64,000 bases of DNA from the IMG/VR virus record IMGVR_UViG_3300029705_006930; one strand, 5' to 3'. The notes under the pieces were generated by a model. It ran no database searches. It was not told the DNA's origin and worked only from the letters and a program-made list of their open reading frames with translations. This DNA comes from a virus (Duplodnaviria; Heunggongvirae; Uroviricota; Caudoviricetes). The position numbers and the translations under genes are program-made. Below, in pieces: positions 2,383 through 27,658 of the stretch; within the stretch, counting starts at the first letter, position 1; each line of letters starts with the position of its first letter.

Positions 2383-2442
2383 AAACCCTCCTTCATTTTT
2401 AGATGTCAAAAATCTGCGCCTGCGTCGAAGATATATATACCT

Positions 2443-2488: not shown

Positions 2489-2620
2489 GATACTCATATT
2501 TTTTATAAATAAAAAATATTCGTCCTGTGCCGTTGTGTTGTTGTTTGTTGCGTCGTGTTTTTTGCCGTTGTCACTGTGCCTTGTATGGTTACTGTGGGCT
2601 TTGTCTGTGTTCCTGTGTGC

Positions 2621-3442: not shown

Positions 3443-3599
3443 AGGTGCCTCCTTGTTTGGATTTTTGTTTCCTCTTTTATTGTCTATATTATACCATGAG
3501 AGGGGCTCTTTGATAACGGGGTTTTTGAAAAAACCAAAGAACTTTTTTAAATTTTTTGTGGCGCTTTATATATGTTAATGTATATAAGGAAAGGTTGAT

Positions 3600-4240
3600 G
3601 CGGTTGTTGCGGGGCAGTGTGATTTGGCGCAAAATTAGGCGATTTTTAGGGTGTTTGCAATTGTGTAAGGTCTGGTGTTGGAAATTTGGAAAGGTGTCTT
3701 AATGCCTGAATTTGAGGCTCTGGTGGGGTTATTCTATCACAGTGCTGACGCACTGTGGCGTCGCTGTGCTCCTTTATCTTATCAACGATGAAATGTTTGT
3801 TATTATGTTGCGCGAGAGAGGGTGTGGGGCGCGAAATTTGGGGGCCGGAGAGGTGGGAGGCGCGGTTTTGGGGCGAAATTGGGGCCCGGGTGGCCGGGGC
3901 TAAAATGGGCGTTTCCGGGGGTGTTTTGAGGGGTGTTTGGATAAGTTGCACAAAAATAGAAAAGCCACAGCCGGCTCTGTATGGGGCTAGCTGTGGTTCT
4001 TGTTGTTTATGGGCGTGATTTTGTTGTTTTTATAGTGTTTTGTGGCAAAAATGGTGAAAAAATGTGTAAAAAGGCGCGAAAATGCGTCAAAATGTGTGAT
4101 TTTTGATGATTTTTGGGTGGATTTGGTGTGGAATCAGGGCGAAATGGTGTGGAATGTTGTGTTTGGAGGGTGTTGTGGGGGTGAAAAGTGGACAAATATT
4201 GCTTTTTATGAGCCGAGAGTGAGATATAGCGACGCGTAGC
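3600..4240. repeat. G+T-skewed repeat-rich non-coding region with GCGAAAT(T)-GGGG direct repeats and many G4-G5 runs
   Basis: Top strand nearly C-free over long stretches. Repeats GCGCGAAATTTGGGGGCCGG (~3830), GGCGAAATTGGGGCCCGG (~3871), GGGCGAAATGGTGTGG (~4137), GCGCGAAAATGCG (~4075). ORFs inside are low-complexity. Confidence 0.4.
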
Positions 4241-4359
4241 TTATTATATACATTAAATCTGTCGCAAAGTCAAAATATCCCCCTACGGCAGTTTAAACCG
4301 CTTTATATCGGTAAATATCAACCTTTGTGAAAAGTTGATATTTTTTGTACAAAATTTTT

Positions 4360-4376
4360 CGATTTTTCAAAAATCG
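4360..4376. promoter_or_regulatory. perfect palindrome CGATTTTTCAAAAATCG (candidate operator); adjacent TTGTACAA palindrome at ~4345
   Basis: 8-bp arms around a single C, 15 bp upstream of the -35 box of the 4391 promoter. Confidence 0.35.
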
Positions 4377-4390
4377 GACGCTTGTTGCTA

Positions 4391-4419
4391 TTGACAATCT
4401 GTCGCTCAGGATTTACAAT
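4391..4419 (+). promoter_or_regulatory. sigma-70-type promoter TTGACA-N17-TACAAT
   Basis: Consensus -35 TTGACA (4391-4396), 17-nt spacer, -10 TACAAT (4414-4419). Drives rightward transcription towards the 4546 gene. Confidence 0.55.
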
Positions 4420-4424
4420 TTTAA

Positions 4425-4446
4425 GTGTAAACCGACAAGTTTACAC
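4425..4446. promoter_or_regulatory. palindromic operator-like site GTGTAAAC-N6-GTTTACAC
   Basis: Perfect 8-bp inverted arms immediately downstream of the -10 box, overlapping the predicted transcription start. Confidence 0.4.
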
Positions 4447-4545
4447 CTACAATTCAATATATCTGTTGTGATTGTTCAAAGGGGGGTACAGATACACAAT
4501 CACAAAATCACACACTATTCAATATTTAAAGGAAGGTATTTATCT

Positions 4546-5241
4546 ATGAAAAAACTCACAAGAAAACAGCTTAAAGCAATAAAAAACACATCAAGCTACA
4601 AATATTTTGAACAATTGAAAACCCTTAAAGGCTCAATGCCGGCAGACAGCAAAAAAACCTATATAGAGCCAAATTCAGACCTTGAAAAATTCGCAAAATT
4701 GCAAGTTATGACCTTAAACAAATATATCCGCCAAGACGGCAAGGGACACAACTTGGCAGCACAAGTTTTGCAAGATTTACAACAGCAAGCTTGTTTGCTT
4801 ATTCTGGAAAACCCTTTAAGCCTTGACTGCTTTACAACAGAACAAGATAAACAGACAGAACAACAGCAACAAGCATTTAAGGCGGTTAAAAATGGTTTAT
4901 ATAGGTATTATTATCACAACTATACAAGCCGCAGCACATCTAAAATTCACAATAACCCGTCAAGTTACATTGCAACAGCTACATATCAAGCAACCGACGA
5001 TATCGGCAAAGATGCACGCGACAGCTATCAAATGGACCTTTACAAATTACATCTGGATGCAATTTTGACAATTTTAACAACGGATGAAAAATACATCTTT
5101 AATGGTTTATTTGTTGAAAACTTAACACAAAAACAACTTGCCGAAAAACTCAATAAATCACAAACTTATGTAGCAAAAACACTTGCAAATATCCGTAGCA
5201 AAATCAAAGCAAATGACCTTGATACACCGATAAACAATTAA
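4546..5241 (+). CDS. sigma-70 region-4-like HTH protein (putative phage sigma factor or transcription regulator)
   Basis: ATG at 4546 with AAAGGAAGG RBS. C-terminal LTTDEKYIFNGLFVENLTQKQLAEKLNKSQTYVAKTLANIRSKIK matches sigma-70 region 4 architecture. Confidence 0.5.
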   Translation: MKKLTRKQLKAIKNTSSYKYFEQLKTLKGSMPADSKKTYIEPNSDLEKFAKLQVMTLNKYIRQDGKGHNLAAQVLQDLQQQACLLILENPLSLDCFTTEQDKQTEQQQQAFKAVKNGLYRYYYHNYTSRSTSKIHNNPSSYIATATYQATDDIGKDARDSYQMDLYKLHLDAILTILTTDEKYIFNGLFVENLTQKQLAEKLNKSQTYVAKTLANIRSKIKANDLDTPINN

Positions 5242-5254
5242 ACCATTATATAAA

Positions 5255-5286
5255 AGGCGGTCACATTTGTGACCGCTTTTTTGTTG
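5255..5286 (+). terminator. rho-independent terminator
   Basis: GCGGTCACA-TTTG-TGTGACCGC hairpin followed by TTTTTTGTTG, 14 nt after the stop of the 4546 gene. Confidence 0.6.
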
Positions 5287-6053
5287 TTCAGGTTATCAAA
5301 AAACATATAAATTATGTACAATTGTTGTAAAATATGGATAAATAAACCATTTTAAACTTTTTGGTAATATTTTTGAGTTTTCATTCAATATATATGCGAC
5401 AGCTAATAGCGGTTAGCGGTTAGGGTGTTAAGCCTTGCCCGCTTGACCGCTTTTTGTCTGTCTGTTTTGCTATGCTTAATTTGTAAGTATAGGACAGGAC
5501 AACCTACCAAGTAGGGACAGCCCAAACGCACAATGTTAGCGTGTTTTGGTTGAAAAAATTTCGGTTTTTTCTTACCTATTGATTGTGTCCCTTTAAAAAA
5601 GGACAGCGGTTCACTCCGCAAGCAAGCCGTCGAGAGATAGTAGATGTTGACACCCTCTTATAAACTGCAAGTAAGGTAGTAAAACAAAAGCCGTAAACGG
5701 CTTGGCTCTTTAAGGTGCCGTTTAGCTAACGGATAAGCGGAAATTGTTCAAAAAAATAATTTTTGTTTGTGAGCGGTTCATTGTGAATATCCAAGGATGT
5801 ACACAACCAAAATGAATTGCCGTCATTACATCTTAGGATGTAAAGGTGGTTACGCAAACGAACAAAAACGAAATTTTCAACAAGAGTATGTGAGAATGTT
5901 TACGATATTTCCAAAGCCGACAGTGAAATGATATATCTGTCGGCTTTTCTTGTAAGCGAATAAGCTCAATAAAAAGTTTGTTCTCTTACAAGATTGTACA
6001 CTCGGTACAGTCTCATTGTAAACATACGCTACATATTCCAAGGAGTAACAATT

Positions 6054-6920
6054 ATGAAACTTAACGAAAAGAAAAACGAAATTTTGTCCGCTATTTCCGC
6101 ACTTAACAAGTTGCTTGTAAACAACGAAAGCAAAAAAGCCGATATCGACAAGGCTCTTGAAAACATCCAGAGCGAAATCAAAGCCTACAATGCCGAAAGA
6201 ACAAGGCTCACTTTTGTTGGGTTGGCTCAGACTGATGAACCTGTTAAAAACGCAATCATTCAGTTGAATTTTGACATCATCAAACTGAAAACAAACAAAG
6301 ACAAGGACACAGATAAAGTGTCATATGAACTTGTAAATGCGAAAAAACAAATCGAATTGCTTGAATTTTCAAAGTATCTCGGTAAAGCAAGTTTTGCAGA
6401 CGAAAACTGGAAATACAAAGTGGAAAAATTCAATCAGCTTATCACATTCAAAGCGGTAAAAGATTTGAATGGCGATATGAACACAATCGCAAAAAGTTTC
6501 TACATCAGCAAACTTGCTGAAAGTGTTGATTTGGGCAAAACACCAACATCAAACACACAGGTTCTCAAACAGTTGCAGACTGTTGTGGACGCAATCATTC
6601 ACGAAAACAAAAGCGAGAATGATGACACAAACAAATTCAAAGTACTGTCTCACGATGTTGCATACATCGTAAAATTGATGTGTAAACGTGCCGACAGCGG
6701 AAAAATCGTAATGCCAAAAGTTTCCTCAATGCACACATTGGTGATGGATGTACTTCACCGTATTGTATGCGACCTCGATTACAAAATCGAATATTCCAAG
6801 AAAAAGGAAGAAGAAACTGCACAGGCTGAAGCCGAAAATGAAATCGAAGCAGCTCAGGAAGAACCAAAAGCTGTAGATGAAAATGCTGAAGAAAAAACAG
6901 CAAAACCAAAAGCGAAATAA
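6054..6920 (+). CDS. hypothetical protein with Lys/Glu/Ala-rich C-terminal tail
   Basis: AAGGAG RBS 8 nt upstream. 288 aa with coiled-coil-like body and KKKEEETAQAEAENEIEAAQEEPKAVDENAEEKTAKPKAK tail. Confidence 0.5.
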   Translation: MKLNEKKNEILSAISALNKLLVNNESKKADIDKALENIQSEIKAYNAERTRLTFVGLAQTDEPVKNAIIQLNFDIIKLKTNKDKDTDKVSYELVNAKKQIELLEFSKYLGKASFADENWKYKVEKFNQLITFKAVKDLNGDMNTIAKSFYISKLAESVDLGKTPTSNTQVLKQLQTVVDAIIHENKSENDDTNKFKVLSHDVAYIVKLMCKRADSGKIVMPKVSSMHTLVMDVLHRIVCDLDYKIEYSKKKEEETAQAEAENEIEAAQEEPKAVDENAEEKTAKPKAK

Positions 6921-6964
6921 TCGAAAACAAAAATCAAAAATGAATTCAAATCAAAGCTGAATGT

Positions 6965-7018
6965 GTCACAGCGGGCAAAAGCTCGCTGTGTATCATTGAG
7001 CTTTTATTTTTTAAGGCA
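6965..7018 (+). terminator. possible terminator hairpins after 6054 gene
   Basis: CACAGCGGGCAAAAGCTCGCTGTG hairpin, then AAGCTC...GAGCTT stem followed by TTATTTTTT. Confidence 0.3.
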
Positions 7019-7075
7019 CATCATAGACGCATATGGTGAGCGAAAATGGTTCAAAAAAATTTTTGGAGGTCAAAA

Positions 7076-7243
7076 ATGAAATCATCTTATAAACGCAAAC
7101 TGCGTAAACAAAAACGAGCTGGTTTATTTGCATTTGTTGCTGGCACAATCGGCAGCATCCTTGTAAGCAACTGGTTTGTCGCAATGCTTTTTTATCCATT
7201 GGCTTGGATATTGTTAACCACAAAGGAAATCATTTGGGAGTAA
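7076..7243 (+). CDS. small membrane protein (basic N-terminus, one TM helix)
   Basis: Internal ATG preceded by GGAGG; protein MKSSYKRKLRKQKRAGLFAFVAGTIGSILVSNWFVAMLF... Confidence 0.4.
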   Translation: MKSSYKRKLRKQKRAGLFAFVAGTIGSILVSNWFVAMLFYPLAWILLTTKEIIWE

Positions 7244-7302
7244 AATGATTTGCAAATCTCTCTCATATATGATAAAATCTAAAACGAAAGGGGGAGATAA
7301 AA

Positions 7303-7845
7303 ATGTACAACGAAAATGAAAAACCATTGGGAATGTCCGATGAAGAATGGGACGAATTAAACAAGCAAGCCTTCTTTCAGCAATGTCCTGACGAAGTAAA
7401 AGAAATTATCCGTAAACAAGGCATAAATCTTACCGATGAAGAACATGAACAAATATGGCAAGATTTACCAAAGTATTTTGCACATCTGCGCAAAGAACAT
7501 AAAAAGAAAAAAATCATAACTATGTTTACACCAGATGGTTTAAATAAAATTTCGCAGTGCATTAGCATTATAAAAACCATAGGTACTCTAATCAATGAGG
7601 ATGTAAAGATTGAACTTGCTCCAATTGAAACAATTTATCGAGCAAACCAAACAGTTTCTCAATTGATTATCGTAGTAATAAACGAAATTAAGTTTGGACA
7701 AGAAGTTGTAGATGGCAAATGTGGCAATTTATTGTCACAGCTCAATGAAATTGCGGATGTAATTAGTTTGTCCACTGATTATAGTGGAGAAAATATTTCA
7801 ATGCACATTTATATAAACGATGCAGTTGTTGTAAAGGAAATATAA
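7303..7845 (+). CDS. hypothetical protein
   Basis: AAAGGGGGAG RBS; 180-aa ORF with no recognised motif. Confidence 0.5.
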   Translation: MYNENEKPLGMSDEEWDELNKQAFFQQCPDEVKEIIRKQGINLTDEEHEQIWQDLPKYFAHLRKEHKKKKIITMFTPDGLNKISQCISIIKTIGTLINEDVKIELAPIETIYRANQTVSQLIIVVINEIKFGQEVVDGKCGNLLSQLNEIADVISLSTDYSGENISMHIYINDAVVVKEI

Positions 7846-7846
7846 A

Positions 7847-8071
7847 ATGGAATACGCAGATTTGATAAACAATTTAATTGCATATCGAAAAAGTCAGAAT
7901 ATTACAACTGTCGAACTTGCTCAAAAAATGAATGTAAGTCGACAATCAGTATATAATATTGAAACTTTGAAAAAAGCTGCACCAGATGAAACTTTGCAAA
8001 AAATGTGTCAAGCATTAAATTTGGAACTTGAAATTGTCCCAAAGCAATACAACATCAAATCCCAAAAATGA
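7847..8071 (+). CDS. XRE-family HTH transcriptional regulator
   Basis: ITTVELAQKMNVSRQSVYNIE helix-turn-helix pattern; 74 aa; start codon 2 nt after upstream stop. Confidence 0.6.
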   Translation: MEYADLINNLIAYRKSQNITTVELAQKMNVSRQSVYNIETLKKAAPDETLQKMCQALNLELEIVPKQYNIKSQK

Positions 8072-8093
8072 ATTTAATTCCAACAACAAGAAA

Positions 8094-8123
8094 AGCTCAC
8101 GGCTCAGGCTGTGGGCTTTTTTG
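8094..8123 (+). terminator. rho-independent terminator
   Basis: AGCTCACGGC-TCAG-GCTGTGGGCT stem (10 bp with 2 G-U) followed by TTTTTTGG. Confidence 0.5.
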
Positions 8124-8261
8124 GTTGCTGTAACAACCACAATGAAAACATCTCATTGAGCCATTAGGGTAAACTGCGACCTCTTTTGACCTCCTGTGTC
8201 GCAGTTCTCCTCAGTGCCTCAAGAATTTTTTCATATTTACTACCTCTTTCGTAATTGATTG

Positions 8262-8300
8262 GAGAGCCTATGACTACGGTTGTAGGCTCTCTTGTTTATT
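8262..8300 (+). terminator. hairpin with U-tract (possible terminator or sRNA 3' end)
   Basis: GAGAGCCT...AGGCTCTC 8-bp stem followed by TTGTTTATT. A third hairpin CTGCGAC...GTCGCAG sits at ~8171-8205 in the same 270-bp gap. Confidence 0.4.
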
Positions 8301-8342
8301 ACGAACACACACACTACATCAACGCGAAAGGAGAATAAAAAA

Positions 8343-8639
8343 ATGAAACCAAAGCGTCTTAAAGCGCGCATCAGCTACGAGTCCGCAGCCGGTGTGCCAG
8401 TAACTTTTGACCGCAAAAATCTCAAAGCTTGGATAGACTTTGAAAATGAAACCTTTACATATACCATTCTTGAAGACGGTGACGTTATAGTGCCGGCTGA
8501 TTTCGGCAAAGACCACGACTACATCAGTGTGCTCACAGGGCAGGTATATGTTTTGGTGCACGAAGTAATTTGGAAACCAGGTGAAGAAATGCCACACGCA
8601 AGACTTATCGGCTATGCAACCGATTGGCAGTACATTTAA
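8343..8639 (+). CDS. hypothetical protein
   Basis: Internal ATG with GAAAGGAGAATAAAAAAATG RBS; 98 aa. Confidence 0.45.
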   Translation: MKPKRLKARISYESAAGVPVTFDRKNLKAWIDFENETFTYTILEDGDVIVPADFGKDHDYISVLTGQVYVLVHEVIWKPGEEMPHARLIGYATDWQYI

Positions 8640-8651
8640 AGGGAGAAAACT

Positions 8652-8975
8652 ATGGAAGGAAAATTTTTGCTCAATCAGTACACAATTCTGATTGATAAAC
8701 ACGAACTTGCTGAACGCATTGCCGAGTGCGAAAGCACCGCTGTGCTCGAATGTGAACTTATCAACCGCGCCACAACTATGCAACCACAGATACTGCGTAG
8801 TGAAAATAGCTACAGAGAAGCAACAGAACACCACATATATTATCGCAACTCAATTAGCCTTGAACGCAATGCATATAAGGTCACTGTTGTTGGTCTGCAC
8901 AGTCCCGACGGGCTTGAAGAATATGCTATGTTCAACAACACCTTGCGAGATGTCTATATTTCGCTCAAGACATAG
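8652..8975 (+). CDS. hypothetical protein
   Basis: AAAGGGAGAAAACT RBS; 107 aa. Confidence 0.45.
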   Translation: MEGKFLLNQYTILIDKHELAERIAECESTAVLECELINRATTMQPQILRSENSYREATEHHIYYRNSISLERNAYKVTVVGLHSPDGLEEYAMFNNTLRDVYISLKT

Positions 8976-9172
8976 GCGAGCGATTGACAAGCAAAATTTT
9001 TTAGCATAAAATACAACCAATGGTTGTTAATATGCAAATATGCAATAGTTTTGCATAAATATTCATATGCAAAATGTCAACTTTGTGCACTTTGTACAGT
9101 TGATATTTCCATATATTACCAGCAACCAAGCGGTAATGTATACGTTATGATATATGAAAAGGGGGATTAAAT

Positions 9173-9622
9173 ATGGAAATTGAAAATGTAAATAAAAAGT
9201 CGGAGAAAACAACTCAGTATTACAAGGTAAGAGTAATCATATATAGACGTTTGCTGTTTGGATATTATGAAACTTACACAAATTTGATTGATGATGCAGT
9301 ACAGACTGCTGTCACTCAGATGTCGCCAGAGATAATGCATCAAATGTTAGGTGGCAAAGAATACAGTAAATTTTGTAAATGTGTTTATGATATCAAAGGG
9401 TGTAGATGCTATGACATTAATGATGCTCAGGGAATATATTGCTATATTGATTGTGTTGAACAGCCCCGAAAAGATATTGCAAGACAAATTGGTTGGCTTG
9501 AATGTCATTGCAAAGATGATAAAGAAAAAGCATTGCGCAAACATCTGCTTACAATAATCGATACATCAAGAATGAAAGATGGCTTGCGACCAATGTTTGC
9601 CAAACAAATATTAAAATTTTGA
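9173..9622 (+). CDS. hypothetical Cys-rich protein (paralog of 9640 gene)
   Basis: AAAAGGGGGATTAAAT RBS. Shares YYETYTNLIDDA segment with the next ORF (YYRTYTNTIDEA). Very AT-rich. Confidence 0.45.
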   Translation: MEIENVNKKSEKTTQYYKVRVIIYRRLLFGYYETYTNLIDDAVQTAVTQMSPEIMHQMLGGKEYSKFCKCVYDIKGCRCYDINDAQGIYCYIDCVEQPRKDIARQIGWLECHCKDDKEKALRKHLLTIIDTSRMKDGLRPMFAKQILKF

Positions 9623-9639
9623 TAACGAGGTAAACAATT

Positions 9640-10038
9640 ATGGCAAATTCTATAAATGATGAAAAAGTAGTCAAAGTAGAAATGATAAAAAAATTACCTA
9701 ATCATTTTGCTTATTATAGAACATATACTAATACAATTGATGAAGCACAGAAAATAATGATAACAGATACGTACAATAGTATTTTGTATTGTATGATGAA
9801 TTATAAATCAGCGAGAACTATATTAAAACCGGGAGAAATTCATTGTTATACTTTGCATAACCTTCGTGGAAGTTGGTGTTGGTGTTCCATTGTTTCTAAA
9901 GAAGATGCTAATAATAATCCAGCAACAGAAGTAGATATCCCATCACTTAATCAAGAAGACATTGATAATTATTGGCATATAATATGTAAATTTGTAAAGC
10001 AACATAACAAAGAATTTAAGGAACAAATATTTGGTTAA
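9640..10038 (+). CDS. hypothetical protein (paralog of 9173 gene)
   Basis: Tandem paralogy with the upstream ORF; 132 aa. Confidence 0.45.
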   Translation: MANSINDEKVVKVEMIKKLPNHFAYYRTYTNTIDEAQKIMITDTYNSILYCMMNYKSARTILKPGEIHCYTLHNLRGSWCWCSIVSKEDANNNPATEVDIPSLNQEDIDNYWHIICKFVKQHNKEFKEQIFG

Positions 10039-10042
10039 ATAT

Positions 10043-10069
10043 AGCACTCATACTGAGTGCTCTTTTTAT
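10043..10069 (+). terminator. rho-independent terminator
   Basis: AGCACTCA-TAC-TGAGTGCT perfect hairpin followed by CTTTTTAT, 5 nt after stop. Confidence 0.55.
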
Positions 10070-10087
10070 ATAAAAAGGAGGTCAACT

Positions 10088-10339
10088 ATGAAAAATGTAA
10101 TTAGTCCAAACAATCACCTTGGTGATACAGCAGAACAGGCTCTTGCCAATGCAATCATTGTTAAGGCTGCTGAAGACTATCGTGCTGCAAAAACAATCTT
10201 GCAGAAACAGCCGGACAATAAGGGAGCACTGATTGAAATTGACAGTCTGCTGAAATTTTTCCGCAGTGATTGGTTTAAAGTACTCACAAAAGTCAAGGCT
10301 GAATTTCTTATCAGCAAACTTGATGCTGAATTTGCATAA
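10088..10339 (+). CDS. hypothetical protein
   Basis: AAAAGGAGGTCAACT RBS before internal ATG; 83 aa. Confidence 0.4.
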   Translation: MKNVISPNNHLGDTAEQALANAIIVKAAEDYRAAKTILQKQPDNKGALIEIDSLLKFFRSDWFKVLTKVKAEFLISKLDAEFA

Positions 10340-10481
10340 GGGGGCGGTACCAATGAAAATAAAACGTAAGCTCCTGAGGGCAATCCGCAAAACATACAAA
10401 CACTTGCACTATGCTTTTTGGGATGTATGCAATGCAGACTACTAATGTCACACACAATATGAGCAAAGGGGGAGAATAAAA

Positions 10482-11450
10482 ATGTTCACCAATATGACAG
10501 AGTTTGTGCGAGCGTACAGACAGGGCTGTCGATTTTTATATGCATCATTTGGTTTTGATTTTTCAAAGCCAGTAATTTTTTACAAGACGCGAGGGCCGAT
10601 AACAATTCGCAAACTGGTGCAAAACATTGGCATCTCACACGAGACACATAAAATCGTTATGATAATGCAACAGCCAAATGCAGGACGCACTTGGGAGCGG
10701 AGTCCAAGACTTATAGAAATAAATGCAGAAAACAATTTTGAAATCAATAATTTTAGGCGCAACTATTCTGACCGTCGTATCTCGTATCTGTTTGATAATT
10801 TTAACAGAAAAATAGATGCAAACACTTGGCGTCGTCTAGAAGAAACTATAATTTGGGTTGTAGCTCAACGCAAAGAGCATATTAAAGAAGCACAACCATA
10901 TAGAACACAGCCACAGCCAGAACCATATGTGCGTTATCAGCCGTATACATTGCGCAGTGCTACTAGTTACTCAAGTATAACATTGATACCATATGACAGA
11001 AACAAAGTGTCTGTTTATAAAGGTTTTCAGCCCGGAAAATGGCCACATAAATTGTCAGAAATACAAGACAAAAATGGCTACTACATATATGATATGCGCA
11101 CCAAGTATGCCAACAAAGTAGAAGAAATAAAAGCACAGCGTCGCAAACGCTTGGTTGACAATTATCCCTTTGACGGTATTATTGAAAAGTTTGAAGCTGA
11201 ATATATGGCAGCCAAAAATGAAGTAGCATATTGTATTTTATCGACAGATAACTATACAGTATTGTCTTTAGCTTCGACCGCATTGGGATACATATCATCG
11301 ACGAATAATGCAATCAATACGTTTAAATATCAGGTACAGAAGAAAGTATTCAAAGATATGGACGAAGCCAAACGACGTCGTGCAGATGTTGAAAATAAAA
11401 TAGTTTCGATGAAACGCAGTGTTGCAAATATGCGTTCAACAATGTACTAA
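10482..11450 (+). CDS. hypothetical protein
   Basis: AAAGGGGGAGAATAAAA RBS; 322 aa with no recognised motif. Confidence 0.5.
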   Translation: MFTNMTEFVRAYRQGCRFLYASFGFDFSKPVIFYKTRGPITIRKLVQNIGISHETHKIVMIMQQPNAGRTWERSPRLIEINAENNFEINNFRRNYSDRRISYLFDNFNRKIDANTWRRLEETIIWVVAQRKEHIKEAQPYRTQPQPEPYVRYQPYTLRSATSYSSITLIPYDRNKVSVYKGFQPGKWPHKLSEIQDKNGYYIYDMRTKYANKVEEIKAQRRKRLVDNYPFDGIIEKFEAEYMAAKNEVAYCILSTDNYTVLSLASTALGYISSTNNAINTFKYQVQKKVFKDMDEAKRRRADVENKIVSMKRSVANMRSTMY

Positions 11451-12280: not shown

Positions 12281-12727
12281 ATGGCAAAACTTAATCTTAC
12301 AGCAAATGTGCTGTCCCTTGAATCCGCACTTAAACTCGAAGATATCAAAAACGCAATGCGTTGGTGTCCAGATGCTCTCACAGTTATGGACGAAAAAGGC
12401 GAAGAAGAACTCTTCTCTGTTGCTGCAGGTACTTCAAAAGGTTATATCTCACCATACGGCATCACATTTGCTGCTGCAACAGTTCGTGGTGGTAAAGCTT
12501 GCTACACACGCGAAGTTGCACCAGGCACAGAAATGAAAGATATTGCTGAAGTTGTGCTCGCTGAATATGACAAACCAAAAGCATATCTTGAAGTTGTTGA
12601 AGCTCAGGTTGCTGAAGCTCTCGCAAAAGTTGCTGAACGTAGAACAGCTATTATGGCTGAACTTGCTGGCGAATGCGAATGTCCAGACTGCACACCAGAC
12701 TGTCCAACAGCACAGGGCGAAGAATAA
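12281..12727 (+). CDS. hypothetical protein, first gene of the Ubl/E1/JAB cassette (PRTRC protein E position)
   Basis: AAAAGGAGATTTTAAA RBS at internal ATG of ORF 12140..12727. Codon usage markedly more biased and GC-richer than neighbours. C-terminal CECPDCTPDC Cys cluster. Confidence 0.5.
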   Translation: MAKLNLTANVLSLESALKLEDIKNAMRWCPDALTVMDEKGEEELFSVAAGTSKGYISPYGITFAAATVRGGKACYTREVAPGTEMKDIAEVVLAEYDKPKAYLEVVEAQVAEALAKVAERRTAIMAELAGECECPDCTPDCPTAQGEE

Positions 12728-12850: not shown

Positions 12851-13078
12851 ATGCTTAGAATTTATGTTGGTACAAACACAAACCGTACAGCTTACACACT
12901 TTCCCCAGAAACAACCCTCAGAGCAGCTTTTGAAACTGCAGGCGTGAACTATGAAATGGGTACCGCAACTCTTGATGGTTCCACACTTCAGCCGGGCGAC
13001 CTTGACAAGTCTTTTGCAGACTTCGGCATCACAGGTACAGCTTACCTCCTGAGCATTGTTAAAGCAAACAACGCTTAA
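12851..13078 (+). CDS. small beta-grasp (ThiS/MoaD/ubiquitin-like) protein candidate
   Basis: 75 aa; MLRIYVGTN...TLDGSTLQPGDLDKSFADFGI pattern typical of ThiS/MoaD-type beta-grasp proteins. Ends ...SIVKANNA with no terminal GG. Strong RBS; high-expression codon bias. Confidence 0.45.
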   Translation: MLRIYVGTNTNRTAYTLSPETTLRAAFETAGVNYEMGTATLDGSTLQPGDLDKSFADFGITGTAYLLSIVKANNA

Positions 13079-13139: not shown

Positions 13140-14540
13140 ATGGCACACACATTTAAAAAATGGATGATAAAAGCCATTCCATATGACAACTTGTTTGACA
13201 TATCGGTGGACTTTGAGAATCCATTCCCGACCGATAATCGTCGCGATGCTACACTCGCGGCTGCATTTCACTGTTTGATTAAAGACAGAATTCCAGAGGG
13301 GGTTAATCGCATTGTAGTGCGTGATATCCACTCATATGACTGCAACGTGAGAGACATTTTTGACTATTATGAGGTTGAAAATGGTTTCAAAAGTTGTATT
13401 TTTTACTACGCAGATTGGGACAATGTGAATCTGCAGAGCAAAATTACATTGCCAAATGAATGGGAAGCTCAGGAAATTGCAAGCAAATTTACTGGATGTT
13501 ATGTTACAAATCACGTATCAAAACAATTGATGGTTATCTTTATTCCGAGCAACTATAACCTTGAAACTTGGCATAGACTTGGTGCATTGTTACCAAAATA
13601 TCCAGTGCTCGAGGATATGTGGGCAGCAAAACCACTTACCGAAGATGAACTCAAGATGTTGAAATCACTGTCAACAGACGGTGTAGATTTTGACACATAT
13701 ATAAAAGCGTGGATTGCGACACTCGACCTGCGCACATCCGCAATCAAAAAAATGTTCAACAAATTCATTATTGATAACATCGAGGAACAGATACGCAATG
13801 CCGAAGATAGACGTAGAAGCCTTGAAAACAATATCACAGACTATGCTGCGAGACTGGCAAGGCTGTATAGCGACCTTGACGGTGTTATTGAAATGATAAA
13901 CCGTCTTATGATAGGTGATGACACTGTTGAAGAAAAAGAAAAGAGACTTATCGAATTCTTGTTAACAAACAAAAATGTTGAGCCAATCAGACGTCGCAAT
14001 GACCGCGTTGAATTCAATGTTCACGCAGCAATTGACTGTTGGGATAACGATATGTTCTCATCTTATATCAATAATCACAACAGTTTATTGTATCGCCATA
14101 CAAGCAGATATTCATATGACCAGTTGAAACGTTTTTATGAGCAGGCATTGTTTGCCGGTCGCTTTAAAATTCAGGGCATTGCTAAATTTGAAATTGCAGC
14201 AACAGGTAATGTGAGACCAATTTCAAAAAATGGGCATTGGCCATCAGCTGAAATCGAAAACTGTATTCCAAATACACATGTGGATAAATTCACTTGTATT
14301 GGTAATCACAGACGTATGCTGGATGATGCTGCAAAAATTCGTGACTATGAACAGGCAATTTTGATTGCTATTCAGATTACACAGTCAGTTAACTGGTCGG
14401 ATGGTGCAGTTATGAATCACTTTATTCCTGAAGTGTTGCACTGTGAACGTCCAATTCTTACAGACAGAACAGGCAATACATACACTGTTGCACAGGTAAT
14501 AAGCATACTTGATGCCGAAATAAAGGAGGTTGAAAAATAA
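13140..14540 (+). CDS. hypothetical 466-aa protein of Ubl/E1/JAB cassette (PRTRC protein B position; possible E2-like or adaptor)
   Basis: AAAGAGAGGAGCTCAGT RBS. Stop overlaps start of JAB gene (ATAATG). No motif recognised by eye. Confidence 0.5.
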   Translation: MAHTFKKWMIKAIPYDNLFDISVDFENPFPTDNRRDATLAAAFHCLIKDRIPEGVNRIVVRDIHSYDCNVRDIFDYYEVENGFKSCIFYYADWDNVNLQSKITLPNEWEAQEIASKFTGCYVTNHVSKQLMVIFIPSNYNLETWHRLGALLPKYPVLEDMWAAKPLTEDELKMLKSLSTDGVDFDTYIKAWIATLDLRTSAIKKMFNKFIIDNIEEQIRNAEDRRRSLENNITDYAARLARLYSDLDGVIEMINRLMIGDDTVEEKEKRLIEFLLTNKNVEPIRRRNDRVEFNVHAAIDCWDNDMFSSYINNHNSLLYRHTSRYSYDQLKRFYEQALFAGRFKIQGIAKFEIAATGNVRPISKNGHWPSAEIENCIPNTHVDKFTCIGNHRRMLDDAAKIRDYEQAILIAIQITQSVNWSDGAVMNHFIPEVLHCERPILTDRTGNTYTVAQVISILDAEIKEVEK

Positions 14541-15475
14541 TGAAACCAATAAGATTGACCGATGATGTAAAAGCGGCTATTCTTGATAAATTTGCAAAAC
14601 AGCTGAGCACGGTTGTACGTGCTTCAACTATTACATTCACACATACGCCAACAGTGGTAAGCACACCGTTAGGCAAAGATGAAAAAGTGCTGATTACTTA
14701 TACAGCAGAAGCATTCCGCAAGCAGCAGATGCTTATTCAGAGTTTTGACAGTGAAGTGGCTTGGCACGGTGTTGTTGAACGTGAAGATGCAAAGCATTTT
14801 ATTATTACAGATATCGTAGTATATCCCCAGACTGTTACCGGCTCAACTGTTGAGATGGACGAAGACAAATATGCTCTTTGGACAATTCAGTTCGGTCGTG
14901 AACACGGCGAAGAAACATTCCAGAAACTGCGTATGCAGGGACATAGCCACGTGAATATGGAATGTTTTGCAAGTGGTACAGACTCTAAACACCAGGATGA
15001 CATCTTGGCAACAACTGACCCAAATGGGTTCTATATTTTCATTATTGCCAATAAAAAAGGCAAATTCTGGAGCACTATTTTCGACCTCGAAGCAAATGTT
15101 CAGTATGAAAATGCTGACATCGAAATCGAGTATGAGGAAGATGAGTACGATGAATTTGTAAGTGCAGCAGAAAGTGTGGTTGTAAAAAAGACTTATACAC
15201 CACCTTACAACTATGGCAATGGCTATCACAACAACGGAGCAGGGTATTCATACGGGGCAAGCGCTTATTCTCAGAAGCCACCTCAGACTCCGCCTATGCC
15301 AGTGCTTCCGACAAATACACAGCCAAAAACAAGCACAAACGAAACAAACACAAAGGCAAACACAAACACAAAAAAGGACGATAAATCCATTGAAGAAGAT
15401 ATCACCAATCTTATTCAGATGTCATTGAACGATATGGAATGGGATGAAGTTGGTGGATGGACAAGCAAAATGTAA
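14540..15475 (+). CDS. JAB/MPN (JAMM) metallopeptidase-domain protein with Tyr/Gly/Asn-rich low-complexity C-terminal region
   Basis: HSHVNMECFASGTD matches the JAMM motif H-x-H-x7-S-x2-D, with upstream Glu residues. C-terminal 110 aa low complexity, ending ...NDMEWDEVGGWTSKM. Confidence 0.6.
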   Translation: MKPIRLTDDVKAAILDKFAKQLSTVVRASTITFTHTPTVVSTPLGKDEKVLITYTAEAFRKQQMLIQSFDSEVAWHGVVEREDAKHFIITDIVVYPQTVTGSTVEMDEDKYALWTIQFGREHGEETFQKLRMQGHSHVNMECFASGTDSKHQDDILATTDPNGFYIFIIANKKGKFWSTIFDLEANVQYENADIEIEYEEDEYDEFVSAAESVVVKKTYTPPYNYGNGYHNNGAGYSYGASAYSQKPPQTPPMPVLPTNTQPKTSTNETNTKANTNTKKDDKSIEEDITNLIQMSLNDMEWDEVGGWTSKM

Positions 15476-15484
15476 GGAGAAATT

Positions 15485-16174
15485 ATGGACTTAAGTAAAT
15501 CACTTGACTGGTTTAATCCAGACAGCGTTTCGGAACGCATACATATTATCGGATGCGGTAGTGTAGGTAGTACAGTTGTGGAACTGTTGGCAAGATTCGG
15601 TCTTACAAAGTTCACTCTGTATGATTTTGACCTTGTTGAACCTCACAATATCGCAAACCAGATGTTCAGAAAAACGGACATTGGTAAAACAAAAGTTGAA
15701 GCATTGCAGCAGATTGTATGTGAAATCAATCCAGAGGCGGGCAAAGATATTAAACTTGAACCAGAAGGTTGGCACGGACAGCAGTTGTCTGGCTATGTAG
15801 TTCTTGCTGTTGATAGCATTGAATTGCGTAAAAAGATTTGTGAAGGTTTGCAGATGAATATCTTTGTTAAAGCTGTGTTTGATTTCCGTACAAGTTTGCT
15901 CAACGCACAGCATTATGCAGCCAATTGGCAGGACAAAAAACATCGTGATGACCTCATTGCAACAATGCAGTTCACCGATGAAGAAGCTGCGGCTGAAAAC
16001 CCAGTATCAGCGTGTGGTGTAACACTTGGTGTCGCACCAACAGTAAGACTGATATGCACACTAGGCGTAAGCAATATGATGAACTTTTTCAGAGAAAAGA
16101 AATTGAAAAAAGTTGTATTGGCAGACGCATTTAATTTTGATGCTGACCCTATGGTATTACCTATGGGTCAATAA
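15485..16174 (+). CDS. ThiF/MoeB/HesA-family E1-like adenylyltransferase
   Basis: IIGCGSVGS Rossmann GxGxxG; YDFDLVEPHNIANQMF (D-x-D...N-x-x-R-Q-like) signature of ThiF/E1; Cys in ENPVSACG. Confidence 0.7.
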   Translation: MDLSKSLDWFNPDSVSERIHIIGCGSVGSTVVELLARFGLTKFTLYDFDLVEPHNIANQMFRKTDIGKTKVEALQQIVCEINPEAGKDIKLEPEGWHGQQLSGYVVLAVDSIELRKKICEGLQMNIFVKAVFDFRTSLLNAQHYAANWQDKKHRDDLIATMQFTDEEAAAENPVSACGVTLGVAPTVRLICTLGVSNMMNFFREKKLKKVVLADAFNFDADPMVLPMGQ

Positions 16175-16198
16175 TACACAATAAGAGAAATGTTTATG

Positions 16199-16500
16199 GT
16201 GAATATTGCACATTGTATGGCAAGCTTTTGCTGTTAGCAGAAGTAAAGAAATGGTAGAGAACATAGAGGCAGGCGCTTAAGGAGCACGCTGAGGTGATTC
16301 CTAAGTACTGCAGCTTCTTGCATCCGACGAGCTCTGAAAAGGTAGGTTTAACAGGAGGATTGGATTACTTACAAGTGAAATTAACCAGTTCAAACCGTAA
16401 AGCTCATCTGAAATTAACGATAAATCCCAGATTTGCATCTCTTTTATCCGGGAATGAAGGGCTTAAAACTATAGCTAGACCATAAACAAGATAGGGAGGA
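16199..16500 (+). ncRNA. candidate structured ncRNA unit A, upstream of RT
   Basis: Non-coding 330-bp gap. Boxes TGAATATTGCACATTGT, TTGCTGTTAGCAG (16228), GAAATGGTAGAGA (16248), AACAGGAGGATTGG (16350), CCAGTTCA (16385) are shared with units at 17873 and 18398. Confidence 0.35.
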
Positions 16501-16504
16501 CATT

Positions 16505-17860
16505 ATGGTTTATATCACATATCCAGCACCTAACAAATTTCATCAGATTACATTTGAAGAAATGATGTCGGGCAATGTTAATACAGATAAATTAAGAATT
16601 TTAGGCGGACATAATACGCTTACTTTGCATCTTAACGATGTACCTGCAAACTTAAAAGGTCAGACTTCTGTACGCAAAATGATTGCAGATTTGCAGTATT
16701 TTGTAGGTGTATATTATGACACACTGATGCCACAGATAAAAGAATTTGAGAAGCTTTCAGATGCTCAGCGTCGCAGCGTCAAACAGCGTGACAAGATTGA
16801 AAATTATTTTGAACAGATGGGCGCAACTGCAAATGATGAAGACTTGCAGAAAATCACTGAACAGGTAGATGCGCTGCAGTGTGAAGTTGCAGAACAGCAG
16901 TATAAATATGCTTACTATACATTCGATTTGCGCAAAAGTTCAGCGCCGGAACACATTCCATTGTGGCGACTGCCAAAAGAATACAGACGTACAATCAATG
17001 CTCCGAACATACATCTTAAAAATGCGCTATATGAACTTAAAGAACTGTTTGAAAATATGATGATACGTACATATCATACTGCATCATTTGCGTATGTTAA
17101 ACATCGTGGAACTTTGGATGCTGTAAAACGTCATCAGAGCTGGGAAAGCAAATGGTTTGCAAAGTTTGACTTTTCAGATTTCTTTGGTAGCACAACAATT
17201 GACTTTGTTATGCAACAGTTCTCTCAAATATATCCGTTTAATATGATTTGTGCATATAAAGATGGTAAAGAAGCTCTTTATAAAGCATTGCAGTTGTGTT
17301 TTTTGGACGGTGGACTTCCACAGGGCACACCTATTAGTCCTCTCATCACAAACATAATGATGATACCATTTGACCACGCAATGTCAAAAGCTCTTAAAGA
17401 ATTTAAATATCCAAACAAACACGGTAGTGAACGTTTTGTGTATACAAGATATGCTGATGACCTGCTTATCAGTTGCCGTGTGGATTTTAAAGTGGAAATT
17501 ATTCAGGCATTTATTCTGGAAACTTTAAAATCAATGAATGCGCCTTTTAGCCTTAACGTTAAGAAAACTCGTTACGGTTCTAGTGCAGGTAGCAACTGGA
17601 ATCTTGGGGTGATGCTTAACAAAGACAATAAAATTACAATCGGTGCAGAAAACAAGCGCAGACTTAAAGCTTCTTTGAATTCATTTATCCTTGATATGAA
17701 GAATGAAAAACCTTGGGATATTTCTATGGTGTATAGACTCAGAGGTCAGATTTCTTATTATCGTAATGTGGAAAGGGAAGCAACAAATAACATCATTGCA
17801 GCGATGAACACAAAATATGGTGTTGATGCAGAAGCAATGATGAAATCTATTATAAGTTAA
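16505..17860 (+). CDS. reverse transcriptase (retron/DGR/UG-Abi clade)
   Basis: GATAGGGAGG RBS; motif 1-2 region YYTFDLRKSS...RRTINAPNIHLKNALYEL; motif A FDFSDFFGS (DFFxS type); motif B' LPQGTPISPLITNI; motif C YTRYADDLLIS. ~130-aa N-terminal extension. Confidence 0.8.
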   Translation: MVYITYPAPNKFHQITFEEMMSGNVNTDKLRILGGHNTLTLHLNDVPANLKGQTSVRKMIADLQYFVGVYYDTLMPQIKEFEKLSDAQRRSVKQRDKIENYFEQMGATANDEDLQKITEQVDALQCEVAEQQYKYAYYTFDLRKSSAPEHIPLWRLPKEYRRTINAPNIHLKNALYELKELFENMMIRTYHTASFAYVKHRGTLDAVKRHQSWESKWFAKFDFSDFFGSTTIDFVMQQFSQIYPFNMICAYKDGKEALYKALQLCFLDGGLPQGTPISPLITNIMMIPFDHAMSKALKEFKYPNKHGSERFVYTRYADDLLISCRVDFKVEIIQAFILETLKSMNAPFSLNVKKTRYGSSAGSNWNLGVMLNKDNKITIGAENKRRLKASLNSFILDMKNEKPWDISMVYRLRGQISYYRNVEREATNNIIAAMNTKYGVDAEAMMKSIIS

Positions 17861-17872
17861 TTTAATTTTTAT

Positions 17873-18150
17873 ATATTGAATATCACAGTCATTGTGAAGT
17901 GTTGATGTTATCGGCACTAACGAAATGGTAAGAAAGTATGGCAGGAAGGCCCGCAGGTTCATGATGAAGACGCGTGCGAGCTTACAGCTCCAGCATAAAA
18001 ATTAGAAATGCTGGTACAATGAAAAGGAAGAAAATCATGAACGAAAGCCATACTTTCCAACATCCACAAAACCACGAATTTAAAACGCTTCATTACTCCG
18101 CGACCCTCCGCCAGGAGGGCCCGGGCGCGGTAAAGCGTCAAATAAATAAT
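17873..18150 (+). ncRNA. candidate structured ncRNA unit B, downstream of RT
   Basis: TATTGAATATCACAGTCATTGT, TTGATGTTATCGGCA, GAAATGGTAAGAAAG (17925) homologous to unit A. Ends with GC-rich compound hairpin CCGCG-ACCCTCCGCCAGGAGGG-CCCGGGCGCGG (18097-18129) and box ATTGAGAATA (18148). Confidence 0.3.
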
Positions 18151-18167
18151 TGAGAATATATAAAAAA

Positions 18168-18350
18168 ACTTTATTGAATATCTTTAAATTTGTACATAAA
18201 TTTAAGAACTGTTGCTGTTAGCAGCAGTGTCAAACGAACAGGATAAATAAAGAAATACAAATTTCTTTATTTAAATAACTTCTTAGCGTCGTAAGGCGCG
18301 ATGCTCCGACATCGCTCATGACGACGCCAAAGTTATTGAGAATAAAGTTA
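18168..18350 (+). repeat. degenerate partial copy of the ncRNA unit
   Basis: TATTGAATATC (18171), TTGCTGTTAGCAGCAG (18210), GC-rich hairpin GCGTCGT...ACGACGC (18285-18326), box ATTGAGAATA (18334). Confidence 0.25.
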
Positions 18351-18397
18351 AAAAAATAATAAGAAAAATAAACAGTGTATATTTGCATAGCAAAGCT

Positions 18398-18760
18398 ATT
18401 GATGTAATCAGTAGTACAGAAATGGTAGGAAAGATTACACGGGACGGTGTCGCCGGTGAGGAGCCACCTCCTTTGCAAACCCCTGCAATATTTCTAAAAC
18501 CTAATTAAAACTATGTCCGAATGGTCAAACATAACAGGAGGACTGAGAAACATCACCTGAAGGATACCAACTGAACCCCCAGTTCAGATGACACGACAGC
18601 TGGAGAAATCTAGACCCATGGGATGGTGATTCAACATTAAATTACAATTCAGACTGTTTATTGCTTTATAGTTTTTGCCAAGCTACGAAAACTCCAAATA
18701 ATGAGTAGTGTGTGACATAAAAGCCAAGCCTCGTCAACTCCCTTTCGGGGCTTGGTAAAG
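18398..18760 (+). ncRNA. candidate structured ncRNA unit C
   Basis: TTGATGTAATCAG...GAAATGGTAGGAAAG (18420), AACAGGAGGACTG (18532), CTGAAC-CCCCA-GTTCAG hairpin (18570-18590), terminal hairpin GCCAAGCC...GGCTTGG (18722-18757). Confidence 0.3.
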
Positions 18761-18797
18761 ACTATAAAACAAACAATTTAAGTAAAGGAGAATATAT

Positions 18798-24908: not shown

Positions 24909-25262
24909 ATGCAAGAGGTTAGATTTTTACTTGATTTTTATGTGCCTTTTAACAGGTGGAAAATAGCTTTGATGAATGTTCCCGAAGAACAATATAAAAT
25001 CAATCCAGGTTTAGGAATATCTCTTACACAGTTTGCATATGATGAACACTTGTCCGAAGGTGGTAATCATTATGAATTTGCGTGTCAGGTGCCAAAGCGA
25101 TTTTATAGATTGCTTAGATTACATCCGGATTGGGAGCCTGTAGATGCTGTAGAACTTGCGAGAATGCTTGAAGGTTATATTAAAGCTGATTGGTCTATTG
25201 AATATAATCCTCCAATTATTACATATGAAACAAGCTTTGAGGAACTGATGGGAGGAGTTTAG
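24909..25262 (+). CDS. C-terminal-motif family member 1 (tail ...TYETSFEELMGGV)
   Basis: AAAGGGAGATTTATATG RBS; conserved C-terminal acidic/hydrophobic motif followed by GG. Confidence 0.5.
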   Translation: MQEVRFLLDFYVPFNRWKIALMNVPEEQYKINPGLGISLTQFAYDEHLSEGGNHYEFACQVPKRFYRLLRLHPDWEPVDAVELARMLEGYIKADWSIEYNPPIITYETSFEELMGGV

Positions 25263-25263
25263 T

Positions 25264-25590
25264 ATGGAAGAAATGAGTTCAACCAGACTAGCCATTACTC
25301 CGCTGATTGACAAAACACGATATGGATGCGGAGTTGTAGGTGCAGGATATCCATGCGAAATTACATCAGATGCCGTTGAATTTATTAGTAGCATAGCAAC
25401 AGAAACATATACGACGGGAACAGGCCGTGTGGATTATACAATATCACATCCAGCATCCATATATAATGATGTCGTCTCTGAAGGAAGATGTTTGACACAA
25501 GCAGTGTTAGATTATATTTTTAATCATGTATTAATCCAAGGTATTGATTATGAAATGAATTTTGAAGAACTTATGAAAGGAGAGCCATAA
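25264..25590 (+). CDS. C-terminal-motif family member 2 (tail ...DYEMNFEELMKGEP)
   Basis: GGGAGGAGTTTAGT RBS; abuts upstream stop. Confidence 0.5.
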   Translation: MEEMSSTRLAITPLIDKTRYGCGVVGAGYPCEITSDAVEFISSIATETYTTGTGRVDYTISHPASIYNDVVSEGRCLTQAVLDYIFNHVLIQGIDYEMNFEELMKGEP

Positions 25591-26057
25591 TGGAGATACA
25601 GAATTTTTGTGAATATTTTAATATTCCAACCAACGCAGATATCTCTGTACAACGTGCTGATGACCCATTTGAACGAATGCAGATAGTAGCAGAATATTTT
25701 TCAGGTGGTGGTTGTAAATGTGAACATATAATTAATTTCGATATGGCTCTTTTATATGCTCAACCAAATGAGGCAGTTTACTCTATTTTATATATTGCTA
25801 ATAATATGATACTGAATATTCCAAAACAGTTATTTGATGCAATATTTATTGAATCAAATAATTTTGAGACTGCATCAAATATACCACATTATATAGCTGT
25901 ATTCTCACAATCATCAATGAATTTAGCACAACGAAAAACACAAGTTGAGGAATTGATAAAAAAACATCAGGAGATATTGCATAATCATCATATACCAGAA
26001 ATTATATATGACTTGGATTTTGATAACTTAATGATAGGAGGTAATGCATCATGTTAG
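25590..26057 (+). CDS. C-terminal-motif family member 3 (tail ...IYDLDFDNLMIGGNASC)
   Basis: Start overlaps upstream stop (TAATGG). Confidence 0.5.
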   Translation: MEIQNFCEYFNIPTNADISVQRADDPFERMQIVAEYFSGGGCKCEHIINFDMALLYAQPNEAVYSILYIANNMILNIPKQLFDAIFIESNNFETASNIPHYIAVFSQSSMNLAQRKTQVEELIKKHQEILHNHHIPEIIYDLDFDNLMIGGNASC

Positions 26058-26473: not shown

Positions 26474-26483
26474 AGGAGAACAA

Positions 26484-26813: not shown

Positions 26814-26825
26814 AGGAGATAATAT

Positions 26826-27646: not shown

Positions 27647-27658
27647 GGAGATGATTTT

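Follow-up and report, generated by a model that had tools for sequence, protein, structure and literature searches.

A divergent phage JAMM/MPN+ peptidase with a family-wide disordered C-terminal extension, encoded beside a predicted ubiquitin-like protein and an E1-like enzyme

The archaeal SAMP/UbaA/JAMM1 system combines a ubiquitin-like protein (Ubl), an E1-like enzyme and a JAMM peptidase, with no recognisable E2. A similar combination is found in the stretch of phage DNA analysed here (64,000 nucleotides, hereafter the window; IMG/VR record IMGVR_UViG_3300029705_006930, Caudoviricetes), where a JAB peptidase (JAB) is encoded beside a predicted Ubl and an E1-like enzyme and an E2 is likewise not recognisable. 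The window, a phage genome segment with 35% GC, also has genes for an integrase, a ligase, a DnaB-type helicase and a PD-(D/E)XK exonuclease, together with further replication genes. JAB is the 311-residue product of an open reading frame (ORF) at 14540–15475, with its stop codon at 15473–15475; this and all other features lie on the plus strand unless stated otherwise. It is composed of a catalytic domain and a C-terminal extension, and the extension is a trait of the whole family of this JAB rather than a tag borrowed from an array of small ORFs elsewhere in the window. We favour, at slightly better than even confidence, a reading in which the extension is a disordered tether with a lineage-specific docking element at its end, carried by a peptidase that acts on the ..NA-ended Ubl of its own gene cassette.

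The catalytic domain of JAB is a JAMM/MPN+ domain of residues 1–219 (14540–15196), delimited by AlphaFold confidence, Foldseek and a family profile. A first-pass annotation made from the DNA sequence had called the protein a JAB peptidase, and the invariant JAMM residues, a profile match and the predicted fold bear this out. The metal-binding motif H135-S-H137-x7-S145-x2-D148 (14942–14983) and the catalytic Glu72 (codon 14753–14755) are located by their invariance: E72, H135, S136, H137, S145 and D148 do not vary in an alignment of 52 homologues, and the JAMM motif is present in all 121 JAB sequences scanned. A profile of the JAB family matches Rpn11 in the PDB (E=4e-4), with the alignment running through the Glu and the HSH..S..D motif. 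In the AlphaFold model, the predicted local distance difference test score (pLDDT) lies at ~86–98 by block across residues 1–220. The top Foldseek matches of the model are Rpn11 (4.9e-10; template modelling score, TM, 0.74 when normalised to the target), CSN5 and PfJAMM1 (target-normalised TM 0.75–0.77).

JAB represents a divergent, uncatalogued clade of the JAMM/MPN+ family. No Pfam, NCBIfam, PHROG or PADLOC model matches it at the cutoffs applied (E<=0.1 or E<=0.01). Among 5.8 billion proteins searched, 427 homologues were found, all of them metagenomic. The GenBank phage collection yielded a single protein match, in the unannotated record MT835544.1, and no match at the DNA level.

The extension past the domain comprises the 92 residues 220–311 (15197–15472). 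About 110 residues of prion-like low complexity had been described here in the first-pass annotation; the low-complexity extension is genuine, but it is shorter than that, and only ~62 of its residues are of low complexity, in two blocks of different composition that are followed by 30 residues of ordinary sequence. The residues quoted in that description (YTPPYNYGNGYHNNGAGYSYGASAYSQKPPQTPP..TNTKANTNTKK and ..NDMEWDEVGGWTSKM) are present in the ORF, and the span to which it was assigned, 15250–15475, corresponds to residues 237–311. The first block (residues 220–245, TPPYNYGNGYHNNGAGYSYGASAYSQ; 15197–15274) is rich in Tyr, Gly, Asn, Ser and Ala and is classed as disordered by its composition, an entropy below 3.0 bits in 20-residue windows and a pLDDT of ~50. 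Prion-like or FUS-like domains are uncharged stretches rich in Gln, Asn, Tyr, Gly and Ser, typically of at least 60 residues; this block, at ~26 residues, is short for such a domain, and the 36 residues that follow it carry five Lys. This second disordered block (residues 246–281; 15275–15382; pLDDT <50) is rich in Thr, Pro, Asn and Lys and weakly basic, with a net charge of +2, and it is encoded in part by an (ACAAAC)x4.8 tandem repeat at 15344–15372. Across the two blocks, model pLDDT is below 50 for ~residues 236–274. The final 30 residues, with a net charge of -5, contain a predicted amphipathic acidic helix (residues 282–297, KSIEEDITNLIQMSLN; 15383–15430), assigned by DSSP on the AlphaFold model at a pLDDT of ~65–68, and an acidic-aromatic tip (residues 298–311, DMEWDEVGGWTSKM; 15431–15472), delimited by its score against the tag core described below and by its identity with the tip of a close relative, P0001.

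P0001 is 96% identical to JAB, and the 11 substitutions between them are unevenly spread. Six fall in the 62-residue linker, three in each block, four in the 219-residue domain and one (S283A) in the last 30 residues, so that the terminal 28 residues, including the tip, are the same in both proteins. This is the pattern that would be expected of a flexible linker with a selected terminal interaction motif.

An extension of this kind is found throughout the JAB family. A tail of at least 40 residues is present in 117 of the 121 sequences scanned (median 84 residues), which answers in the affirmative the question, raised with the first-pass annotation, of whether the low-complexity linker is conserved among homologues. 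Gly (3.2x), Pro (2.75x) and Tyr (2.6x) are enriched in the tails and aliphatic residues are depleted. The average tail has a Tyr/Gly-rich part, then a Lys-rich part (net charge +3.1) and then an acidic-aromatic last 30 residues (net charge -2.3). The linkers themselves are unalignable between homologues, and the C-termini are highly variable (..RFDT, ..FQD, ..YIY, ..GGK). Within sub-clades, terminal motifs recur: [V/I]D[W/Y]DxE[I/V]FG..RFDT in 30 of 120 homologues, GxGWxG in 28 and IGRSF in 10.

JAB is the fourth gene of a cassette in the order p148-Ubl-p466-JAB-ThiF-RT, where RT is a reverse transcriptase. Among 86 related loci from IMG/VR and metagenomes, 76 keep this order, in agreement with the earlier placement of JAB within a Ubl/E1/JAB cassette. 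The second gene (12851–13078) encodes a 75-residue protein ending ..VKANNA that is, on the evidence of Foldseek, profile comparison and its conserved C-terminus, probably a beta-grasp Ubl. The top 50 Foldseek matches of its low-confidence model are without exception Ubl structures (ubiquitin, SUMO, NEDD8 and others), alone or as parts of fusions and complexes; the best PDB matches of its profile are also Ubl domains, none of them significant. The conserved C-terminus of the family is ..K-A-[D/N]-N-A, not Gly-Gly. Across the homologues (phages L003–L086 and the window), the ..DNA end is followed by 0–4 variable residues (R, A, AA, TGMN, NA, ID, GQ or LAA), which reads as the signature of a precursor with a mature Asn-Ala end in place of Gly-Gly.

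The tip of JAB has to be compared with a second set of C-termini in the window. The first-pass annotation had described a 13-member family of tails at 24909–29763, and this family exists: the array consists of 13 small ORFs whose listed tags have the consensus [I/M]-x-Y-[E/D]-x-[D/E/S]-F-[D/E]-[D/E]-L-[M/L/F]. The tag is all that these ORFans of 77–161 residues have in common, their bodies being mutually unrelated. The L-[M/L/F] core is followed by GG, KG[D/E], EGE or KEE, and these residues are an in-frame reading of the ribosome-binding site (RBS) of the next gene, a Shine-Dalgarno GGAGG or AGGAG located 10–15 nucleotides before the start codon. GGAGG yields Gly-Gly, AAAGGAGA yields Lys-Gly-Asp/Glu and TGGGAGGAA yields Trp-Glu-Glu; where a tag stops earlier, the RBS comes after the stop codon. 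The same dual coding is seen in all three tag arrays, that of the window and those at L048 13336–16545 and L087 7763–10528. Because the GG of the tags is encoded by the RBS of the next gene, it is a by-product of dual coding and not a ubiquitin-like diglycine, and the functional tag core would be Phi-x3-F-[D/E]-[D/E]-L-[W/F/L/M], with Phi a hydrophobic residue.

Tags of this type are found in related phages, for which the sequence covered extends 10 kb to each side of JAB, so that arrays farther out would be missed. In phage L087, whose lineage is the nearest (its JAB is 46% identical), there are nine or more at 5533–10528 (e.g. ..MSFDELW, ..MGFEELF and ..MEFDELWKQ), and its tags end ..FDELW or ..FEELF-COOH without GG. 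L047, L048 and L050 have 8–11 tags, such as ..FEDELMALLGG and ..DFSKELFNLLGV, at ~1800–6050 and 13336–16550. Tag-bearing genes directly follow the RT gene in L087 and L048 and occur on both sides of the cassette in L047, L048 and L050. In many other phages, the product of a DUF6273 gene lying between ThiF and RT has the ending ..TDEELFELLG[M/L/V]A.. (L023 11635–12441, L003 11618–12418 and L056 3772–4596). A regular expression for the common register, Phi-[DESTNQ]-x-[DEQSN]-Phi-x-x-[LMF]-Phi-[GKDE] within the last 20 residues, captures seven members of the window family and 8–10 tags each in L047, L048 and L050, and none of 4630 minus-strand control ORFs. Under a hidden Markov model (HMM) of the L047 type, 7 of the 13 window tags rank within the top 4% of background. 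Outside the window phage, a tag profile search of 1.84 billion proteins gave only five matches, all same-lineage orthologues, and the member at 27659–28144 has a single homologue, 93% identical, among the 5.8 billion proteins. Three further window proteins end D-[D/E]-[D/E]-L-F-COOH (1456–2382 on the minus strand, ..SDDELF; 40992–42227, ..SEEDLF; 47390–48325, ..SDEELF). One of them is a PD-(D/E)XK exonuclease, another adjoins genes for an AAA_24 ATPase and a DnaB-like helicase, and their ends resemble the acidic tips of single-stranded DNA-binding protein (SSB).

The JAB tip (..NDMEWDEV..) could be a degenerate member of this short linear motif class that binds the same groove of a hub and is co-recruited, or competes, with the tagged proteins; we consider this unlikely, though with a real minority chance. 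The first-pass annotation had likened the terminus ..MEWDEVGGW.. to the array tails through a shared 'acidic-aromatic-GG' ending. An acidic-aromatic motif near the C-terminus is indeed common to both, M-E-W-D-E-V in JAB and M-D-F-D-E-L in the tags, but the GG does not survive as a part of it, given the RBS origin of the tag GG and the sister-lineage tags that lack it. The GG codons of JAB (GGTGGA) lie ~25–30 nucleotides 5' of the ThiF start, and the ThiF RBS, AAGGAG, comes after the JAB stop; because the GG of JAB is not RBS-derived and that of the tags is, the shared GG is coincidental. The tip is also one residue short, has neither the Tyr/Phe of position 1 nor the second hydrophobic residue, does not have the hydrophobic register Phi1-x3-Phi5-x2-L8-Phi9 and belongs to a 311-residue enzyme rather than to a small ORFan. 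Against a 13-column HMM of the tags, the JAB C-terminus is the best non-member of the ~90 C-termini in the window at 7.8 bits (next 5.1–5.3 bits), compared with 12.7–26.6 bits for true members. Removal of the two GG columns raises it to 8.2 bits versus 10.5–22.6 bits, still below every true member. On these short models its score is matched by 2–5 of 2000 shuffles and by 3 of 1644 background C-termini of related phages, and the chance of one such score among ~90 window C-termini is ~15%. With a 26-column model the tip reaches 4.3 bits and rank 17, a score equalled by 44 of 2000 shuffles (noise), and with a model of 31 tags from three phage lineages it reaches 4.9 bits, in the top 2.6% of background. 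The proposed resemblance therefore passes a comparison with shuffles narrowly on the short models and dissolves into noise on the broader 26-column one, and the common-register expression has no match in the last 30 residues of JAB. The JABs of L087 and of L047, L048 and L050 do not resemble the tags found locally. Co-variation between JAB tips and local tags, lineage by lineage, was rejected, since local tips rank only 25th, 42nd and 13th of 154 when scored on the tags of their own lineage; 'DWDKEIFGG' tips from elsewhere outscore local tips against the window tags. A conserved receptor would need no such co-variation, however, and the present tip ranks 4th of the 154 JAB tips against the L087 tags. 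The location of tag-bearing genes next to or inside the cassette in other phages (L087, L047, L048, L050 and those with the DUF6273 gene) also favours a connection, but JAB tails in general are not enriched in tag-like motifs: 6.6% exceed the 95th percentile of background on the 31-tag model, against 5% expected, and general enrichment was rejected. The likeness of the JAB tip to the tags is suggestive at best. It is quite improbable that the tip and the ORFan tags (..F-[D/E]-[D/E]-L-[W/F/L/M]) are ligands of a single docking site that belongs to one of the clade's conserved proteins, such as p466 or another cassette component. If they were, an E2-less phage Ubl/E1/JAB machine would be brought to an expandable and fast-evolving set of tagged effectors, which it would modify or de-modify.

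Other roles for the extension do not involve the tags. With Tyr/Gly 'stickers' combined with Lys-rich and acidic blocks, the tail might drive self-association or condensate formation, or bind nucleic acid, and so localise JAB to a compartment of replication or of RT products. Conservation of the three-block composition (aromatic/Gly, basic, acidic-aromatic) in homologues whose tail sequences are not conserved is consistent with this, as is the conserved retron-type RT neighbour, but the short Tyr/Gly block and weak basic block found here, and terminal motifs specific to sub-clades that point to specific contacts, make it decidedly unlikely. We consider it very unlikely that the extension is largely neutral low-complexity sequence generated by replication slippage, with no specific function. 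The (ACAAAC)n repeat inside the linker, the concentration there of the differences from P0001, which makes it the fastest-evolving part of the protein, and the failure of linkers to align between homologues would all fit such an origin. It does not account for retention of a tail in nearly all homologues at ~35–45% domain identity, for terminal motifs conserved within sub-clades or for a terminal 28 residues identical to those of P0001. The first-pass annotation had suggested self-processing. The tail would then be a pro-peptide or pseudo-substrate, with JAB cleaving itself after ..EVGG, as in maturation of a Ubl precursor, or with E1 activating the exposed GG. The GG followed by five residues (GGWTSKM) is superficially like the end of a Ubl precursor, and 33 of 120 homologues have a GG inside their last 15 residues; with Gly at 13.8% of tail residues, however, GG is expected from composition alone. 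The GG is not an expected JAB cleavage site because the cassette Ubl ends ..KA[D/N]NA, the variability of JAB C-termini further argues against a processed end, and the RBS origin of the tag GG removes the analogy with the tags, which leaves self-processing extremely improbable.

We return to the favoured reading, that the extension is a tether with a docking end. To the observed fold, active site, disorder, family-wide architecture, synteny and Ubl terminus it adds two points that we infer, namely that the extension works by tethering and docking, and which substrate the enzyme acts on. The cassette genes p148, Ubl, p466, JAB, ThiF/E1-like and retron-type RT would form a conserved, co-transcribed unit in which the catalytic job of JAB is most likely the trimming or deconjugation of the cassette's own Ubl, with a presumed mature end at ..K-A-[D/N]-N-A and 1–4 removable residues beyond it in sister phages. 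The linker, which is long, fast-evolving, slippage-prone and flexible, Tyr/Gly-rich and then Lys/Thr/Pro-rich, would act as the tether. The terminal element, a short and locally conserved unit made of the acidic amphipathic helix and the tip, would dock the peptidase onto a partner, which might be p466 or another protein of the cassette, or else a phage hub, and docking would raise the local concentration of JAB near Ubl conjugates. Several points weigh against this proposal. Docking is inferred only from patterns of conservation, and the helix at residues 282–297 is a prediction of only moderate confidence. No E2 is recognisable among the cassette proteins. The Ubl of the window phage has no C-terminal extension, and because it offers nothing to trim, the JAB substrate in this phage would have to be a conjugate. 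The tag likeness of the tip is marginal yet reproducible (8.2 bits; 2 of 2000 shuffles; 3 of 1644 background C-termini), so the lineage-specific motif could itself be a degenerate tag.

The genes on either side of JAB are closely packed. The p466 gene (13140–14540), present in all 86 related loci, ends in a stop codon that overlaps the JAB start (TAATG), and the two are probably translationally coupled through this overlap. The ThiF/E1-like adenylating enzyme (15485–16174; Pfam ThiF, 1.4e-20; 85 of 86 loci) begins nine nucleotides past the JAB stop with its own AAGGAG. The cassette opens with p148 (12281–12727), which is conserved in order and found in 81 of 86 loci, and closes with a retron-type RT (16505–17860), located downstream of ThiF in 84 of 86. 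Pfam, NCBIfam, PHROGs and PADLOC lack a model for four of the six cassette genes, and a literature search found no paper describing the cassette. p466 has invariant residues R50, P152, H380, C386 and N418 and a motif PNxH[I/V]D-x3-C-x-GN. A profile search of the PDB and the curated families gave no match for p466, and the last homologue search found a single protein, 98% identical. p466 may supply a catalytic or scaffold function that the cassette otherwise lacks. In the window, p148 has a Cys-rich C-terminal extension (..GECECPDCTPDCPTAQGEE) that the homologues in L003 and L006 lack. Canonical E1 and MoeB enzymes carry the motif ..SNLxRQ with a conserved Arg; at this position the cassette ThiF, read by eye, has ..DFDLVEPHNIANQ.., and the usual Arg appears to be Asn across the cassette ThiF clade, which has a conserved Cys within ..PVSACG...

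The RT was assigned with NCBIfam and PADLOC models, matching the NCBIfam retron St85 RT at 1e-46 (below the model cutoff) and PADLOC RT_II-A at 2e-41. A reading of the RT and the DUF6273 gene as a diversity-generating retroelement was rejected: there is no template/variable repeat pair, only a ~42-nucleotide hairpin element, and retron models fit the RT best. We observed this ~42-nucleotide element both upstream and downstream of the RT gene, at 16222–16264, 17896–17938, 18206–18248 and 18393–18435 in the window, and it is conserved across phages (L003 12461, 13969 and 14247; L006 12524 and 13179). Pairing in its small hairpin is kept by compensatory changes in four of six pairs. The repeat, for which Rfam gave no match, is a candidate for a non-coding RNA or DNA element associated with the RT. 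The 940-nucleotide region downstream of the RT (17861–18797) contains no convincing ORF. Relatives have NAD-salvage-type genes for NAMPT/NAPRTase, a phosphoribosyltransferase and a member of the isochorismatase family, a few kb downstream of the cassette (L003, L004 and L005 18100–20900, L006 19000–20900, L089 14700–19500), with NAD synthase or RtcB added in some. Between the Ubl and p466 genes of L003 there are two tRNA-like direct repeats (8227–8310 and 8414–8497); the window has no tRNA genes.

The JAB family described here is an uncatalogued clade of phage JAMM peptidases with at least 427 metagenomic homologues and at least 100 viral contigs of ~50–150 kb. Its members join a catalytic domain like that of Rpn11 to a long disordered tail, and they are encoded beside an Asn-Ala-ended predicted Ubl, an E1-like enzyme, p148, p466 and a retron-type RT. 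Should the tail prove to be a tether for docking, its truncation or its use as bait would give an experimental handle on the targets of a phage-encoded ubiquitin-like system. The comparison with the tag array also removes a false lead, in that the 'GG' of the tag family is an RBS read in frame and no ubiquitin-like diglycine.

Several known systems share parts of this arrangement. In Bil (BilA–D), type II CBASS with Cap2 and Cap3, and PRTRC, too, mobile DNA encodes an E1 and a JAB along with a Ubl or C-terminal tail. The nucleotide-binding region of the cassette E1 is common to Cap2-type enzymes, being the part matched by the PADLOC E1–E2 (Cap2-type) models, and PRTRC ThiF is weakly similar. 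Membership of the PRTRC cassette was rejected: PRTRC_ThiF alone matches, at 31.4 bits against a cutoff of 144.75, and the other PRTRC models do not. Unlike these systems, the cassette has no detected E2 domain and its carrier is a phage rather than a host; JAB, the Ubl, p148 and p466 match none of the PADLOC defence-system models. In overall architecture JAB resembles SSB, which has a folded domain, a disordered Gly/Pro-rich linker and a short acidic-aromatic, partner-recruiting tip ending ..D-D-[I/L]-P-F-COOH. JAB similarly has a globular domain, a low-complexity linker and an acidic-aromatic end, and many JAB homologues end in runs of D/E followed by P-[Y/F]; the comparison implies no homology. 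Mimicry of the SSB tip itself was rejected, as no JAB tail ends ..PF-COOH, and the analogy is one of architecture only. The closest known counterparts of the peptidase are the Rpn11/CSN5/AMSH-type JAMM proteins and archaeal JAMM1 (HvJAMM1, PfJAMM1–SAMP2), which have the same fold and E...HxH-x7-S-x2-D zinc site. Rpn11 and CSN5 carry helical assembly modules where the phage JAB has a disordered extension of ~90 residues. The phage protein further differs from Rpn11, CSN5 and JAMM1 in lacking a curated model match, in being phage-encoded and linked to a retron-type RT, and in having a presumed Ubl partner that ends in Asn-Ala rather than Gly-Gly.

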